Shown piece after piece: positions 6,050 to 11,559 of a DNA stretch of 13,077 nt. The notes beneath the pieces are model-generated. The model saw only the letters and a program-made list of their open reading frames with translations, did not search any database and was not told where the DNA came from. Within the stretch, counting starts at the first letter, position 1. Every line of letters begins with the position of its first letter. Made by a program: the position numbers and the translations under genes. Origin of the DNA: a virus (Duplodnaviria > Heunggongvirae > Uroviricota > Caudoviricetes); the IMG/VR virus record IMGVR_UViG_2671180603_000001; one strand, written 5' to 3'.

Positions 6050-8956
6050 TTAATACTCCGTCACGTTTTCCTGTCGCCACGCCTCGTCATATTCCGATTT
6101 CGGCATATTGGCGATGTAGCTATATGGCGATCCTGATTCAAGTTGCAGGAACTGGTGCGATTGCTCGTCAAGGAACAACGGAACACCACCTTCCCAGCCT
6201 TCGCCGTTACGTTGTTTTTCAAGCATCAAAACAGATGCAGGAGACGCCAGTAGCTGTTCGTCCTTCTCTGACATCTTTTCACCACTCTGAACTCTCTGTA
6301 ACGCTCTCTCGCGAGCCTTGTTACGCCAGATGATGAAAAGGTTGTCTGTCAGGTCTGTTATCGCTCCAGAGCCTTTCACGTCCATTTTCCCGGTTGGTTT
6401 TTCTTCGCTGTCTCCTTTTCTGGAGTGAGTAACGAGAATGACGTGGGAGTTTGTTTTGTTTTTGAAGTCACAAATCGAGTCAACAAACGCTTTCTGCCCG
6501 TTATAGTCATCGTCACCTATGCCGCATTTCATCAGGCTGTCGATAATGAATAACTGGATGCCGTATCGGCGGCGAGCGTAGTCGAATATTTCGATCAGCC
6601 TGTCGGCTTTCGCCGTTCCGGTCAGGCCAAACACCCAAAGTCTTTCGTCATAAAATTTAAATGCAGAGTCAATTTCCAGCACTGGCGGCATCTTGCAGCA
6701 CGTTGCCTGACGGGTAAGTCGCTTAAGGAGAATACCAGGCTTCAGCTCAAGTGACGCGATGCACGTCTTCACACCCTGACGCATTGCCTCAAGTGCCATA
6801 TGCCCGACAACCTCGGTGTTATGCGTCGCCACATATCCCCTGGTTACATACAGGTGGCGAGGGTGATCGACCATAATACACAAGCATTCTGCATTGCCGA
6901 TTTTTTCAACATTCCTGACGAATACCCCACAGCCCTCGAATCGATGCGCAGTTAATCTGCCATTGAGTCGTGGTGAACGGATGGCCTCCCTGATTTCTCT
7001 TGTCAGTCTGATTCTTGCCTCGTATGAATCCATCCCATGCCGCTTATCGTCCTTGTATGTGTATGTCACGCCAGTTTTAACTCGCGTCCGGCATGACCCG
7101 CCGAGTGAGTTAACCAGTTGAACAACCCCATTGCGCAGTTTTTCACTTGCTGAGGAAAAAACAAGCGTTCCATCCTTCTCGACATACCCATCCGTTTCAA
7201 GCAGACCACACAGCATGCCTATACGCGTTGATTTATTTGCGGAAAAAAACACACGAGGGATGAATTTGTTTTTTGCTGTGCACCCCATTAGTCCATAACC
7301 TCGCAGGGTCTCCATGAGTGGATTTACCTGACCACGCGCCGTTGATATCAGCCAGTCCTTACCATCTCCAGAGAAGTTGTAATCAGGCAGTTCAGCCTTC
7401 ATACGCTCGATCATGTATGGCTCGACGTTTGAAAACTTCACGCTCCCATTGCTAAGACTACCATCCCCGAGAAGGGAGCCGATAACCCATGCTAATGGCT
7501 CTGAGTGGTCGCCAAAGTCACCAGTTATTTCAGGAATCCTAACGCCATTTTTGTGCCTCTTCGTTTCACTCAACCGCTTCAACCCGAAGGTATCTATCAC
7601 GCGGCGTTTCTCGCCTTTCGTGAATCCACGACTAGTGACCTCCCATAGGTGATCGCCTGCGCAATCAACATAACGACCATCTTCAAATGTGACTCGGTAA
7701 ACATCTCTAACACCCTGCGGGAATATCCCAGTGACAGTTGACGGATTGCCGTCTACTGACGCCACCTGATCGCCAATTTTTACATTCCCGTGAGTAGTCC
7801 ATGTCCCATCAGCTAAAAGAATAGGCTCATTCAGTGGGCATGCCTTTCCGTGACCGTTCACACCATTGACCAGCGTCAACTCTGCCTCACGGAACTGGAA
7901 TTTATCTGCCAGAGATTCCCACGGTGGATTAAACAGATACTGCTGCTTGCCGTAGAAAGCGTTGATAGTGTCCTGGTAAAACTCGCGCGCGCTGTAGAGT
8001 TCTTCAGGATCGAAGTAGGATGCCGTGCCGATGTACTGCCAGATTTCATCCTCGGTAACACCGTTCATCAGGCATTCGTTGATGTCTTTGTACGGCAGAG
8101 TAACAAGACGGCAACGATGTTCACCGAGTCGGCTTGCGATTTCCCTTGCGGCTTCACGACCAACATCATCAACGTCCATCGAGATGAATATTTCCTCAAA
8201 CCTGTCGAGGTTGTGATACTCAAACTCAATCCACTGTTGCTTAGCGCCTTTCCCGCCACCAAACGGCACGGATAACGCCGAGATGCCGTATTGCGCATAG
8301 CTCATACAATCAATTTCGCCTTCGCAAAGCACAACCGCCCTCACGCCAGCGTCCAGAGCCTGCCATCCGAACAGGCAAGGTTCGCAATCACCTTCTGCCA
8401 TAATGACTTTCTTCCCGTCCGGGCGCTCAGTGCTGATTCGCTTGACCTGCAACAACTCACCATCGCGTTTGTACGGAAGCACCAGAGCATCCAGTTCTCG
8501 TTCTCCATTCCACACCTTGCCGCTGACAACCTCGTAGCGCTTTACGACTTCTGGCGATATGCCACGCGATTGCAGGTACTCAAGATGGGATTCTGTTCTG
8601 GTAACGTAGTGGGCGATTTTCTTGCGATCAGGTCTGGAGAATTTCTTCTCACGTCTGGCATCGAAATGGTGATCGTCATCCTTGATACCGAGAAATGCTT
8701 TCGCTTCCTGCATAGCCTGATGCAGGTTAATTCCACGACATGCCATCCACAAATCAAGCATGTCACCGCCGTCTCCCTCAGCGAAATCAGCCCATTTTTT
8801 CTTACCGCTAAGGTTGACCTTAAGGCTGTTTCCCTTGTCACCGTTGACGTTACCGGCAACCCACTCATGCCCCTCTTTCTTGCCGTTTGGCAACAGGTGC
8901 GGAGCCACCCTGTCAACCTGCGCCCAAAGCAGGTCGCTAAGTTCTGATGGACTCAT
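6050..8956 (-). CDS. bifunctional Toprim primase - SF4 (T7 gp4/DnaB-like) helicase, intein-containing
   Basis: 968-aa ORF. Toprim motifs at residues 200-265 (VVLCEGEIDCMS, SMDVDDVG). Helicase motifs in the C-terminal part (Walker A GVNGHGKA.T split by the intein, Walker B QLFIIDSLMK, then ILVTHSRKG and KGSGAITDLTDNLFII, which parallel T7 gp4 H2-H4 as I recall them). Confidence 0.8.
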   Translation of the reverse strand: MSPSELSDLLWAQVDRVAPHLLPNGKKEGHEWVAGNVNGDKGNSLKVNLSGKKKWADFAEGDGGDMLDLWMACRGINLHQAMQEAKAFLGIKDDDHHFDARREKKFSRPDRKKIAHYVTRTESHLEYLQSRGISPEVVKRYEVVSGKVWNGERELDALVLPYKRDGELLQVKRISTERPDGKKVIMAEGDCEPCLFGWQALDAGVRAVVLCEGEIDCMSYAQYGISALSVPFGGGKGAKQQWIEFEYHNLDRFEEIFISMDVDDVGREAAREIASRLGEHRCRLVTLPYKDINECLMNGVTEDEIWQYIGTASYFDPEELYSAREFYQDTINAFYGKQQYLFNPPWESLADKFQFREAELTLVNGVNGHGKACPLNEPILLADGTWTTHGNVKIGDQVASVDGNPSTVTGIFPQGVRDVYRVTFEDGRYVDCAGDHLWEVTSRGFTKGEKRRVIDTFGLKRLSETKRHKNGVRIPEITGDFGDHSEPLAWVIGSLLGDGSLSNGSVKFSNVEPYMIERMKAELPDYNFSGDGKDWLISTARGQVNPLMETLRGYGLMGCTAKNKFIPRVFFSANKSTRIGMLCGLLETDGYVEKDGTLVFSSASEKLRNGVVQLVNSLGGSCRTRVKTGVTYTYKDDKRHGMDSYEARIRLTREIREAIRSPRLNGRLTAHRFEGCGVFVRNVEKIGNAECLCIMVDHPRHLYVTRGYVATHNTEVVGHMALEAMRQGVKTCIASLELKPGILLKRLTRQATCCKMPPVLEIDSAFKFYDERLWVFGLTGTAKADRLIEIFDYARRRYGIQLFIIDSLMKCGIGDDDYNGQKAFVDSICDFKNKTNSHVILVTHSRKGDSEEKPTGKMDVKGSGAITDLTDNLFIIWRNKARERALQRVQSGEKMSEKDEQLLASPASVLMLEKQRNGEGWEGGVPLFLDEQSHQFLQLESGSPYSYIANMPKSEYDEAWRQENVTEY
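6818..7840 (-). mobile_element. intein with LAGLIDADG homing-endonuclease domain (residues 373-713 of the primase-helicase)
   Basis: Starts with Cys373 in a block-A-like context (CPLNEPILLADGTW...VKIGDQVASVDG, similar in pattern to the Sce VMA intein start). Ends ...YVATHN followed by Thr714, the canonical HN plus nucleophile. Two LAGLIDADG-like motifs inside (WVIGSLLGDGS at 490-500, GMLCGLLETDGYV at 580-592). Boundary codons checked on the DNA. Confidence 0.75.
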
Positions 8957-8974
8957 ACTTTAACCGTCCTGAAT

Positions 8975-9064
8975 CGCATTCTGACGCAATATTTTTTTAT
9001 CCTGTGTATTCGTCAGACCGTCGTTTATCGCACTACAGCGCGTCTGATGGCGTTTAAACGCCAT
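8975..9064. promoter_or_regulatory. structured intergenic region between initiator and primase-helicase genes
   Basis: Inverted repeat TCTGACG(C)AATA (arms around 8980-8990 and 9007-9017) flanking an AT-rich core, plus a perfect 18-bp palindrome ATGGCGTTTAAACGCCAT (9047-9064). The left arm is also part of the leader motif shared with the 71-aa gene. Confidence 0.4.
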
Positions 9065-9183
9065 TGACGGAGCTAATGGCTGCTGAGGTCGAGATTTTTA
9101 AACCAGAAATCGACAAACGAAATACTTAACCAGCCGTGGTTATAACCAGCGACCAGTAGCGATTTGATTTTTGATTTCATGGT

Positions 9184-9915
9184 TCACCTGTCGAAAAACA
9201 CGTAGCCAGTTTTCGATACGGTAATTGCGGATGATGGTCTGGATTGTGGTTGAATGGTTTCTGGCTTCTCGTCGTTCCAGCGCTGACCGTTCAGGTAGCT
9301 CGACGGTAACAACCTGTCGAATCCGAACTGCTTACCATTCCTGCATGCGATGTCTTCTGCCAGCATCGTGGCAAACTCGCTTGCCGTACCCCTGGTAGTT
9401 TTACGCCATTCCCTGAACTGTGTTCTGAATGCCGAAGCTGCGTTTTTCTTCCCGGCTTTCCGCATGCCTGCACACCAGAATATTTCCTCGAATGCCTTGT
9501 CGGTTTCTTCGTGACGGTCAGGAGTTTTTTCACACTCCGTTCGGACATGTTCGAACATAATGTTTTTAGGTTCATTGACTGGTTCAAAAGAGTGATAGGT
9601 TCTGGGGGCAGCTCCTGCCCCACCCCCTAGGGCAGCTCCTGCCTGTGCATTATCCAGCGTCAGATAAAAAACGTTTGACTGGTTAAGCTCTCCTTTTCTT
9701 CTGCATTCCCTTTTCAAAAGCCCCATCTCTTCCAGTGCCCTAATGTGACTTTTTACTGTCGATCTGCTCACCTCACACTGGTCAGCGACATGTTGATATG
9801 AAGGCCAGCATTCGCCATTATCATTGGCGTTATCGGCAAGTTTAATCAGAATCAGTTTTCTCAGTGGGTTGCCAACCTTTATATTCATGGCCTTAGCCAT
9901 AAGATTCATGCTCAT
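9184..9915 (-). CDS. phage replication initiator with N-terminal winged-helix/HTH domain
   Basis: 243-aa ORF with an N-terminal HTH-like domain (LADNANDNGECWPSYQHVADQCEVSRSTVKSHIRALEEMGLL), a Gly/Ala-rich linker and a basic C-terminal half. Occupies the lambda O position upstream of the helicase. GGAGAA Shine-Dalgarno. Confidence 0.7.
   Translation of the reverse strand: MSMNLMAKAMNIKVGNPLRKLILIKLADNANDNGECWPSYQHVADQCEVSRSTVKSHIRALEEMGLLKRECRRKGELNQSNVFYLTLDNAQAGAALGGGAGAAPRTYHSFEPVNEPKNIMFEHVRTECEKTPDRHEETDKAFEEIFWCAGMRKAGKKNAASAFRTQFREWRKTTRGTASEFATMLAEDIACRNGKQFGFDRLLPSSYLNGQRWNDEKPETIQPQSRPSSAITVSKTGYVFFDR
9575..9684. repeat. iteron-like direct repeats inside the initiator gene (candidate origin)
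   Basis: Exact 10-mer TTGACTGGTT at 9575-9584 and 9675-9684, exactly 100 bp apart. Between them GGGCAGCTCCTGCC occurs twice (9606-9619, 9630-9643; 24-bp period), followed by an A-rich tract (9662-9670). The 12-bp palindrome ATGTTCGAACAT lies just upstream (9547-9558). Confidence 0.4.
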
Positions 9916-10055
9916 TTTGACTTCTCCGAAGTTTTGTACCTGTTAAGTATTTCTCTCAGTGGCACAGCTATTTCTGGATTAACCCCCTGATAAAACTGGT
10001 CACGTAGCACATCTTTTCGGTGATTAACGCGTTTATTTTCCTGCGTTTTTCGCAT
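9912..10055 (-). CDS. small hypothetical protein (47 aa) between cII and the initiator
   Basis: ATG at 10053-10055 with GAGG 8 nt upstream; its stop overlaps the initiator start in ATGA. The longer track ORF (to 10223) overlaps cII out of frame and is unlikely. Confidence 0.35.
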   Translation of the reverse strand: MRKTQENKRVNHRKDVLRDQFYQGVNPEIAVPLREILNRYKTSEKSK

Positions 10056-10066
10056 ATAATTACCTC

Positions 10067-10134
10067 GTTGGATGTTGTTAAAATTCCATTTGTATTTGAT
10101 CAGAACGCTCGGTCTTGCACACCGGGCGTTTTTT
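10067..10134 (+). ncRNA. oop: oop-like antisense RNA with promoter and terminator
   Basis: Consensus -10 TATAAT at 10055-10060. Intrinsic terminator at 10106-10134 (CGCTCGG-N9-CCGGGCG with one G-U pair, then TTTTTT) lies antisense within the cII 3-prime end, the same arrangement as lambda oop. Predicted RNA about 68 nt. Confidence 0.45.
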
Positions 10135-10377
10135 ATTGGTGAGTCCATCAAGCGCATACTTAAAAGCCCTGCTAATCGGACTGATGTCTGATGCCATTCC
10201 GAAAGCACACAAGACCGAAGCAATAAACCTCCAGTCCGTTCTGCTTATCTTCGATTCATGACAGCCAATCATCTTTGCCAGACCGCGCTGGGTAAGCGTT
10301 GACAGGTTGATGAGTAAATCTGTTTCTGCACGATCAACGTCGCGCTGTGATAGTTTGCTGTAACTTGTTTGTTCCAT
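10078..10377 (-). CDS. cII: transcriptional activator CII
   Basis: 99-aa ORF whose C-terminal half matches my memory of lambda CII (ILTNKKRPAATERSEQIQMEF versus LTNKKRPVCKTERSDQIQMEF here). HTH in the middle. Confidence 0.85.
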   Translation of the reverse strand: MEQTSYSKLSQRDVDRAETDLLINLSTLTQRGLAKMIGCHESKISRTDWRFIASVLCAFGMASDISPISRAFKYALDGLTNKKRPVCKTERSDQIQMEF

Positions 10378-10761: not shown

Positions 10762-10851
10762 TACTTATAACCAAGGATAACTCAAGTTATAAAAGATAGC
10801 AATAACCTTTATTATTTTACTTTGGATAACCGTAGTTATAGATTTGTGGAT
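10762..10851. promoter_or_regulatory. right operator region with divergent promoters for cro and cI
   Basis: Three 14-bp sites of form ATAAC-N4-GTTAT at 24-25 bp spacing: 10777-10790 (ATAACTCAAGTTAT), 10802-10815 (ATAACCTTTATTAT, imperfect), 10826-10839 (ATAACCGTAGTTAT). Candidate cI promoter: TTTTAC (10815-10820) and TATAGA (10837-10842), which would give a near-leaderless cI mRNA. Candidate cro promoter -10 TATAAG on the minus strand (10764-10769). Confidence 0.5.
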
Positions 10852-11559
10852 ATGAAAACATTCGCAGAAAGACTAAATGCAGCCATGAGATCGGCAGGGG
10901 TGTCGCAATCACAGCTTGCGGACATGGTTGGAATATCTCAGCCAGCCATACAGAAGATGTCATCCGGTAAAACAAACGGATCTCGCAAGATGGTTGAGTT
11001 AGCTAATGCTTTAAAAGTACGCCCTGAATGGCTTAGTTCTGGTATTGGTGAAATGAGGGATGGTACACATGAAGAACCATCCAATATCCGTGAGTCATCT
11101 TTAAAAGCTGTGGTATGGGAAGACATTAAAAAAAACGATGACGAGTTTGTCGCATTGCCTCTTCTTAACGTTTCGCTTTCGGCTGGAAGCGGTAGCTGCG
11201 AGATAGAAGAATCATCAGAGTTCTCTTTGGTTTTCAGAAAGTACTATCTGAAAAAGATGGGGGTAACTGAAAGTTCTGCCAAGCTGGTAAGGGTAACAGG
11301 TCAAAGCATGGAACCAACTCTTCACGATGGCGATGTTGTTGGTGTTAACACACAAGATACCACCATCAGAGATGGTAAAACCTACGCTATTTGCCAGTCT
11401 GATTTGTTGCGAGTAAAAACATTAATCGCCACTCCTACATCGGTGATAATCAGATCAATAAATCGCGAAGAGTACCCGGATGAAGTAATGGATAGAGATG
11501 AATTTCATAAAACCGTAAGGATTATTGGCAGAGTATTCTGGTCATCGCATAGCTGGTAA
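10852..11559 (+). CDS. cI: CI-type prophage repressor (HTH plus S24 LexA-like autopeptidase domain)
   Basis: 235 aa from the ATG at 10852 (track ORF begins at TTG 10822). N-terminal HTH (QSQLADMVGISQPAIQKM); C-terminal S24 motifs (Ala-Gly site in LSAGSG, GQSMEP serine motif, downstream Lys in LLRVKTL). Confidence 0.85.
   Translation: MKTFAERLNAAMRSAGVSQSQLADMVGISQPAIQKMSSGKTNGSRKMVELANALKVRPEWLSSGIGEMRDGTHEEPSNIRESSLKAVVWEDIKKNDDEFVALPLLNVSLSAGSGSCEIEESSEFSLVFRKYYLKKMGVTESSAKLVRVTGQSMEPTLHDGDVVGVNTQDTTIRDGKTYAICQSDLLRVKTLIATPTSVIIRSINREEYPDEVMDRDEFHKTVRIIGRVFWSSHSW

Follow-up and report, generated by a model that had tools for sequence, protein, structure and literature searches.

A candidate replication origin within the initiator gene of a phi24B/Min27-type lambdoid prophage

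The 13,077-nt stretch of the caudoviricete record IMGVR_UViG_2671180603_000001 (hereafter, the window) covers the immunity and early-right region of a lambdoid prophage of the phi24B/Min27 type, with the operon on the minus strand. This type represents the beta subtype of the Shiga toxin 2a (Stx2a) phages, a subtype that is defined by replication genes (PMC4645166). The early genes include those for a replication initiator ('O') and a primase-helicase (Table 1), and the middle of the initiator gene contains two classes of repeats, an array of dyad-symmetric units (class A) and a nearly invariant block of direct repeats (class B); the DNA around these repeats is 97-98% identical to that of the Stx2a phages F403/F451, phi24B and Min27. 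We consider it likely that window positions 9564-9643, inside the initiator gene, are the replication origin of this prophage, laid out on the lambda plan with different parts. That a plausible origin lies within the initiator gene, as the lambda ori does within O, had been proposed in the original prediction made from the window alone, and comparison with relatives strongly supports this placement.

Repeats between the two domain-coding parts of the initiator gene

The initiator consists of a winged helix-turn-helix (HTH) N-terminal domain of the HTH_36 family (aa 1-88; Pfam match at aa 17-67, E=6e-14), a Gly/Ala-rich linker and a C-terminal domain, and is 100% identical to a protein from Shigella sonnei. 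A Pfam search with this protein yields no match to Phage_rep_O, which leaves it outside that family, and none to Rep_3, the domain that together with DnaA boxes characterizes iteron-plasmid origins. A profile comparison of its N-domain with the lambda-type N-domain of mEp043 gives a probability of 0.2%. Judging by these comparisons, the initiator is not a homologue of lambda O. A PDB sequence search returns just weak matches to GntR-type HTH proteins (E about 0.25), and an AlphaFold2 model built from an alignment of 17 near-identical sequences is unusable (mean predicted local distance difference test score 40.9).

The sequence search for homologues of the initiator identifies 4881 proteins, and the module structure of the gene is apparent from its relatives. 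The C-domain is common to the lambda-type O of mEp043, in which a lambda-type N-domain is combined with the C-domain, the small downstream open reading frame (ORF) and the primase-helicase of the window (~97% DNA identity); conversely, SI8 has the N-domain of the window fused to a different C-domain. The mosaic joints of both with the window are located directly beside 9569-9575, the end of the class B block. In other relatives, the N-domain is fused to C-domains adjoining DnaB-like, DnaC-like or P-like genes, and 11 unrelated C-domain families are attached to the N-domain plus block in 96 non-redundant genes.

These 96 representatives define the class B consensus, CCAGAACCAGTCACTCTTYTGAACCAGTCAnnGAACC, which is nearly invariant. 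In the window, the first of three copies, GAACCTATCA, is two bases off the core word GAACCAGTCA and is identical to the word found in a Psychrobacter phage; the third is a half copy of which GAACC alone (9569-9573 in the window) is conserved among relatives. The degenerate word GAACCWRTCA occurs twice in the 13-kb window, with 0.13 occurrences expected, and both lie within the block. A first comparison included six divergent homologues (~50% protein identity) from phages of Vibrio, Pectobacterium, Salmonella, E. coli and Psychrobacter, all of which repeat GAACCAGTCA (in Psychrobacter, as the variant GAACCTATCA) right past the linker, copy 1 being read as R-T-S-H and copies 2 and 3 as E-P-V-K/N.

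Circularity was avoided by seeking further loci with the N-domain alone (aa 1-88; search patterns from aa 23-42, outside the repeats), which produced 160 loci, 80 viral ones from IMG/VR and 80 from genomes, with hosts that include Pantoea, Pseudomonas, Aeromonas, Xenorhabdus, Shewanella and Marinomonas. Nearly every complete gene among them carries GAACCAGTCA, with at most one mismatch, two to four times at gene nt 330-440, at spacings of 17 and then 12; at this stringency, there are 195 matches in the 50-nt block vs 30 in the remaining 289 kb. A reverse scan of IMG/VR with the exact 27-nt block detects 120 loci, of which 114 are preceded by the N-domain within a single ORF, five run off the contig and one is frameshifted. 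Class B is found only together with the HTH_36 N-domain family. Distant relatives of the N-domain, in Pseudomonas MD8 and Aeromonas 4_4512, possess other GAACCnnnnn words in the same layout; because these occur in the same host genera, the word tracks the initiator rather than the host.

Codon usage in the block is strongly biased compared with the rest of the same genes. Arg is encoded by AGA in 91/91 cases (7% elsewhere), Ser by AGT in 91/91 (12%) and by TCT in 84/84 (10%), Glu by GAA in 96/96 and 92/92, that is, 188/188 (43%), Pro by CCA in 86/91 (28%), and Val by GTC in 92/94 (30%). The GC content at third codon positions of the N-domain ranges from 0.33 to 0.91 among the representatives, and the residue between the block copies is free to vary (F/S/L/I). 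With synonymous sites frozen and one word maintained in two reading frames, class B is under selection at the nucleic-acid level. The block is also contained in the AT-richest 50 nt of the middle of the gene (9554-9603, 68% AT), and across relatives no other part of the gene is as rich in AT as the block (0.14 over the gene mean), which directly follows the GC-rich units. An antisense promoter on the plus strand (TTGACT) was considered here and ruled out: a usable -10 element is missing and the T of TTGAC is variable. Directly downstream of the block is a 12-bp perfect palindrome, ATGTTCGAACAT (9547-9558, codons M-F-E-H), which is present in phi24B, is absent from SI8 and mEp043, and is the sole terminator-like hit, at chance level.

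Class A consists of dyad-symmetric 17-21-bp units in the linker-coding DNA (GGGGCAGGAGCTGCCCC in the window), and classes A and B together occupy gene nt 273-352, between the HTH domain and the C-domain. The window has two units. The distal one is truncated, its outer arm (GGCAG/CTGCC) having been shortened by the deletion of 24 nt that a 251-aa allele retains. Copy numbers among the 96 representatives are one (3 genes), two (7), three (18), four (43) and five (25), so that four to five are most frequent, with a spacing of 21-24 bp, i.e., roughly two helical turns. In relatives, a constant 11 nt separates the dyad centre of the last unit from the block's first GAACC, and the proximal unit of the window has the same distance. 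The 21-nt units ahead of the block belong to discrete types, namely GGGGCAGgagCTGCCCC (the window type), TGCCAccagaTGGCA, GTGCAggagcTGCAC, GTGAatctccTTCAC and GGTGtaggcccagaaagCACC, with GTGACAgcgTGTCAC in the Psychrobacter phage and TGCCAnnnnnTGGCA as a dyad type differing from that of the window. The symmetry is maintained through compensatory changes: 80% of the cells are paired, shuffles give 58% (0/500), and sliding the partners gives 25-46%. The core type and the recognition-helix motif show a perfect partition among the 96 representatives. The unit encodes the heptad GGAGAA[RL], and in proteins that are at least 98% identical elsewhere, lengths range from 243 to 300 aa in steps of 7-8 residues; the class A array changes very fast among near-identical initiator genes.

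The original prediction centred on two exact copies of the 10-mer TTGACTGGTT placed 100 bp apart, start to start. Both are present (9575-9584 and 9675-9684) and, as stated, they fall in different amino-acid contexts (minus-strand frames F-E-P-V-N and L-N-Q-S-N); the spacing is not conserved, amounting to 100, 121, 124, 145, 148, 166 or 187 bp in near-identical alleles. The notion that they form a bracketing pair has to be abandoned, given that the first, on the plus strand, overlaps copy 2 of class B and represents the core of the block, whereas the other is an apparent coding coincidence; what had been overlooked are the real partners of the core, GAACCTATCA at 9593-9602 and GAACC at 9569-9573. 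At least one exact 10-mer pair appears in 28% of the codon shuffles of the gene, which has another, unrelated 10-mer pair, and TTGACTGGTT is not enriched in the window (19 matches with up to two mismatches vs 12.6 expected). In 41 relatives, the second copy varies freely at synonymous sites (AAC/AAT 24:17; Ser TCA/TCC/TCG/TCT 10:13:16:2), and therefore it is probably not a functional copy. Free synonymous sites combined with a lack of symmetry and register, as in a neutral linker, are observed solely at 9675-9684, and not in the block or the dyads. The tandem 14-mer GGGCAGCTCCTGCC was correctly reported at 9606-9619 and 9630-9643 with a period of 24; three or more repeat diagonals, as seen in the gene, occur in 0.35% of the shuffles, so the tandem exceeds chance, and this GC-rich sequence, previously treated as filling, reads as an iteron-like element. 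By contrast, the A-rich tract included in the predicted origin is merely the codons GTT TTT TAT and is not conserved in relatives.

The downstream spacer and neighbouring genes

Table 1. Features of the window discussed in the text
Feature	Position	Strand	Basis or remark
cI	10822-11559	+	gene order
cro	10516-10761		gene order
cII	10078-10377		gene order
Initiator 'O', 243 aa	9184-9915	-	phrog_270/4617 replication initiation protein; Pfam
Second TTGACTGGTT	9675-9684	-	codons N-Q-S-N, wing of the HTH domain
Class A, distal unit	9630-9643		24 bp from the proximal unit
Class A, proximal unit GGGGCAGGAGCTGCCCC	9605-9621		7-bp arms, 3-bp spacer; includes the first GGGCAGCTCCTGCC
Class B block, CCAGAACCTATCACTCTTTTGAACCAGTCAATGAACC	9569-9605	-	comparison with relatives
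Class B copy 1, GAACCTATCA	9593-9602	-	read R-T-Y-H; out of frame with copy 2
Class B copy 2, exact GAACCAGTCA	9576-9585	-	read E-P-V-N; 17 nt past copy 1
Class B copy 3, half copy GAACCTAAAA	9564-9573	-	12 nt past copy 2
Small hydrophobic ORF (MKSKIKSLLVAGYNHGWLSISFVDFWFKNL…), 35 aa (37 aa in relatives)	9073-9180	-	phrog_21848, E=4e-26
Rare non-coding insertion, ~125 bp	8957-9085		comparison with relatives
Primase-helicase, 968 aa	6050-8956	-	Toprim_2 and DnaB/gp4-like ATPase; presumed partner recruited by the initiator C-domain

The spacer between the initiator and primase-helicase genes is unusually long (227 bp), and the original prediction extended the origin into it, as an intergenic region. 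Most of the initiator-proximal part of this region is in fact a conserved small ORF, whose counterparts in phi24B, SI8 and mEp043 differ by conservative or synonymous substitutions. In relatives, its stop codon overlaps the primase ATG (ATGA or TAATG); in the window, an insertion parts the two genes. This ORF is unannotated in the inspected records. It is not part of the origin, and the AACCAG words of the spacer, tried as additional iterons, were rejected because they correspond to its conserved Trp-Leu/Phe codons.

The insertion is absent from phi24B, SI8 and mEp043. Outside the window it occurs only in phiKp_30, a Klebsiella phage, and in two of the 5426 complete E. coli genomes, each of which has a single copy; the site is always the same. 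The predicted RNA fold of the insertion is unremarkable (z = -1.6), and a 34-aa ORF within it is not conserved in the two other carriers. Both palindromes noted in the spacer exist but lie outside the origin: the 18-bp perfect palindrome ATGGCGTTTAAACGCCAT (9047-9064) belongs to the insertion and has one mismatch in phiKp_30, and the imperfect inverted repeat at 9088-9114 falls within the coding sequence of the small ORF and is not intact in phi24B. Like the ORF, the insertion with its palindrome is not part of the origin. The spacer as a whole stays linked to the primase gene and not to the DNA-binding domain.

The primase-helicase gene of the window also stands after the lambda-type O in mEp043. 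In the window, it contains a 341-aa intein (aa 373-713; 6818-7840, minus strand) with Hint and LAGLIDADG homing-endonuclease domains, which splits the Walker A region (…GVNGHGKA/CPLNEP…VATHN/TEVV…); the intein is missing from the 626-aa products of the mEp043 and SI8 genes, which are ~97% identical to the window gene in the remainder. Beyond this gene are those for NinB, antirepressors, RusA and Q, and two tRNAs. Beside the antirepressor genes, at 3485-3729 (minus strand), Rfam detects a C4 antisense RNA (75 bits), the a1/b1 target (50 bits) and isrK (72 bits), i.e., a P1/P7-type antisense immunity module within a lambdoid prophage. The tRNA genes, Thr-TGT and Asn-GTT, are located at the contig end (117-272, minus strand), past the Q antiterminator gene (533-1156). 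On the other side of the initiator, between it and cII, is an ORF (9912-10223, minus strand) whose C-terminal 47 aa match phrog_1913 (DUF2740); the label 'tail protein' of this family appears misplaced for an early-operon gene.

Other signals were sought in the region. The Rfam scan of the whole window (E up to 1) yields no match in 8900-9950, promoter and terminator scans give chance-level counts with none in the repeat region, DnaA boxes with at most one mismatch are lacking between 6547 and 10820, and sequence inspection for IHF sites reveals no convincing match.

Interpretation of the repeats and its alternatives

A lambda-like origin is inferred because the repeats combine selection at the nucleic-acid level, a characteristic geometry, exclusive association with one N-domain, independence of partner and host, and a position equivalent to that of the lambda ori. 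Initiator dimers could bind the class A dyads via the winged HTH, and class B, the least stable mid-gene stretch adjoining the dyads, may serve the same initiator as the site of duplex opening or of loading. Opening might involve sequence-specific contacts to the class B repeats or to one strand, and the primase-helicase, whose gene lies downstream, would then be recruited by the C-domain. On this view, the peptide ...GGAGAAPRTYHSFEPVNEP... would for the most part be carried along with the DNA signals. A single dyad unit together with the block seems to be the minimal core, given that SI8, an isolated, viable phage, has no more than one class A unit.

Several points weigh against this interpretation. 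Origin activity, initiator binding and unwinding are all predictions from sequence, and the searchable literature holds no origin experiment or marker-frequency data for this type of replicon. The AT content of the block is 55-59% as the family mean and 68% in the window, without a long AT tract, and its predicted stability is no more than ~1.8 standard deviations below the window mean. The frozen codons establish nucleic-acid selection without separating DNA from mRNA as the target, and the correlation between recognition helix and iteron type is confounded by linkage and common descent. In near-identical genes of E. coli, Shigella and Salmonella, class A is present in anything from one to ~10 copies, and the commonest allele has one. 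Lambda, by contrast, has a fixed number of iterons, and a variable array of this kind would also arise through slippage in a linker that tolerates it. The lack of nearby DnaA boxes may be listed here as well, although it is neutral for a lambda-like origin.

If the block acted at the level of RNA or protein, it could be an mRNA element that governs how the initiator transcript is translated or how stable it is, or the peptide PRTSHSFEPVNEP could be a docking motif. In favour of this, the block is part of a transcript and is translated, the peptide shows conservation, distant homologues again have [ED]-P-x-x repeats, and frozen codons alone cannot tell DNA from RNA. We nevertheless regard this option as unlikely: a peptide motif leaves unexplained both the exclusive use of rare codons (AGA, AGT, TCT) and the 10-mer in two frames, the amino-acid changes are mostly single-base steps inside the word (R to I, T to I), no Rfam family is matched, and direct repeats at 12/17-nt spacing beside dyad arrays in an initiator gene are a signature of protein-DNA sites. 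The variability of class A, from one unit to ~10 in near-identical genes, together with the 28% of shuffles that produce an exact 10-mer pair and the unconstrained upstream copy, would fit repeats that are mere by-products, of slippage in a low-complexity linker in one case and of chance in the other, with no role as an origin. Such an account is improbable, as it leaves four observations unexplained: dyad symmetry kept up by compensatory changes, core types that go with the type of recognition helix, a constant distance of 11 nt from the last dyad to the block, and the freezing of the block.

We find it similarly hard to believe that the block is primarily a module junction, a short island of homology for exchange of N- and C-domains by recombination. 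The SI8 and mEp043 joints directly beside the block and the 11 attached C-domain families are as expected under this scenario, but joints there are equally expected from a conserved functional site at a domain border, and recombination, though it could make use of such an island, cannot preserve an identical 37-bp sequence across the range from Vibrio to Pseudomonas next to synonymous sites that are saturated, nor does it account for an internal repeat in two frames. Least probable of all, in our view, is an origin outside the initiator gene, either elsewhere in the phage or, for example, in the downstream spacer, whose unusual length and perfect 18-bp palindrome might be taken to suggest it; ~125 bp of this spacer is the insertion shared with only one other phage record and two of the E. 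coli genomes, the palindrome is imperfect in phiKp_30 and the RNA fold is unremarkable, and the rest is the conserved small ORF, in a spacer that moves with the primase gene and not with the DNA-binding domain. None of these alternatives explains the frozen two-frame repeat, the dyad covariation and the fixed register together.

Relation to known origins and implications

An origin in the linker-coding DNA in the middle of the initiator gene is already known from lambda and lambda-type Stx phages, with four iteron copies in lambda and six in the Stx phages, and published work on Stx phage origins, in which these were placed on a pir-dependent R6K vector, concerns lambda-type O only (PMC7466680). 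The candidate origin of the window resembles those of the lambda, 933W and P27 types in that the repeats are located within the initiator gene between two domain-coding parts; that tandem dyad units at approximately two-turn spacing stand beside the least stable stretch, with copy number differing between relatives; and that a two-domain initiator has a C-domain matched to its helicase or loader partner. It differs from lambda in the DNA-binding domain, which is HTH_36 and not Phage_rep_O, with no detectable homology; in the sequence-conserved direct-repeat block that occupies the place of the AT-rich tract of lambda-type O genes, no strongly AT-rich stretch of ~40 bp being found; in the partner, a primase-helicase and not a P-type loader; and in the class A array, which can shrink to one unit in a viable phage. 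The comparison with mEp043 is the most direct: where the window has class A and class B, mEp043 has, at the homologous position, lambda-type iterons GTGACAnnnnTGTCAC, followed by a 50-nt tract with 80% AT and then the shared C-domain, without the GAACCAGTCA block.

Iteron plasmid origins (RepA/RepE/pi/TrfA) likewise combine an initiator with direct repeats beside an unwinding element, the latter being putative in the window; the window differs in having neither a Rep_3 domain nor nearby DnaA boxes, and in carrying the repeats inside the coding sequence. The Rep proteins of these plasmids bind inverted repeats as dimers and direct repeats as monomers, and two of them, TrfA and RepE, make sequence-specific contacts to a single strand of the unwinding element, a possible model for class B. 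In the replisome-organiser or Rep genes of Gram-positive phages (SPP1 gene 38/oriL, TP901-1 orf13 and Tuc2009 rep), direct repeats within the coding sequence are bound by the product of the gene itself; the proteins and the repeat sequences are unrelated to those described here, and we know of no block conserved across genera in these origins. SPP1 oriL is mentioned in PMC5737612. What distinguishes the present case is the unrelated DNA-binding domain, the sequence-conserved direct-repeat block instead of an AT tract, and the extremely plastic dyad array. The searchable, and incomplete, literature contains no description of these motifs or of the origin of this replicon; searches with the motif strings retrieved only papers that, judging by their titles, are unrelated, and PMC2647930, considered as a source, concerns a different element.

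The subtypes of Stx2a phages, which are set by replication proteins, correlate with toxin output (PMC4645166), and the replication module of the window is the one that defines the beta subtype (F403/F451, phi24B, Min27). For this module, the analysis provides a base-precise candidate origin with clear targets for cis mutations. The 27-37-bp block also serves as a simple marker: in many prophages that are as yet uncharacterised, with hosts ranging from Vibrio to Pseudomonas, it shows where the origin probably lies. In addition, it is a clear example of a protein-coding stretch whose sequence apparently follows from a DNA signal that is read in two frames. A more specific and decidedly tentative proposal is that the GAACCAGTCA block is a sequence-specific unwinding or helicase-entry element that the HTH_36 initiator recognizes, perhaps in single-stranded form, and that is shared near-unchanged by hundreds of gammaproteobacterial temperate phages whatever their helicase system, with the variable dyads setting replicon specificity. 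If so, the peptide PRTSHSFEPVNEP would be a translation by-product of an origin signal, and the gene would offer a clean case of overlapping codes.

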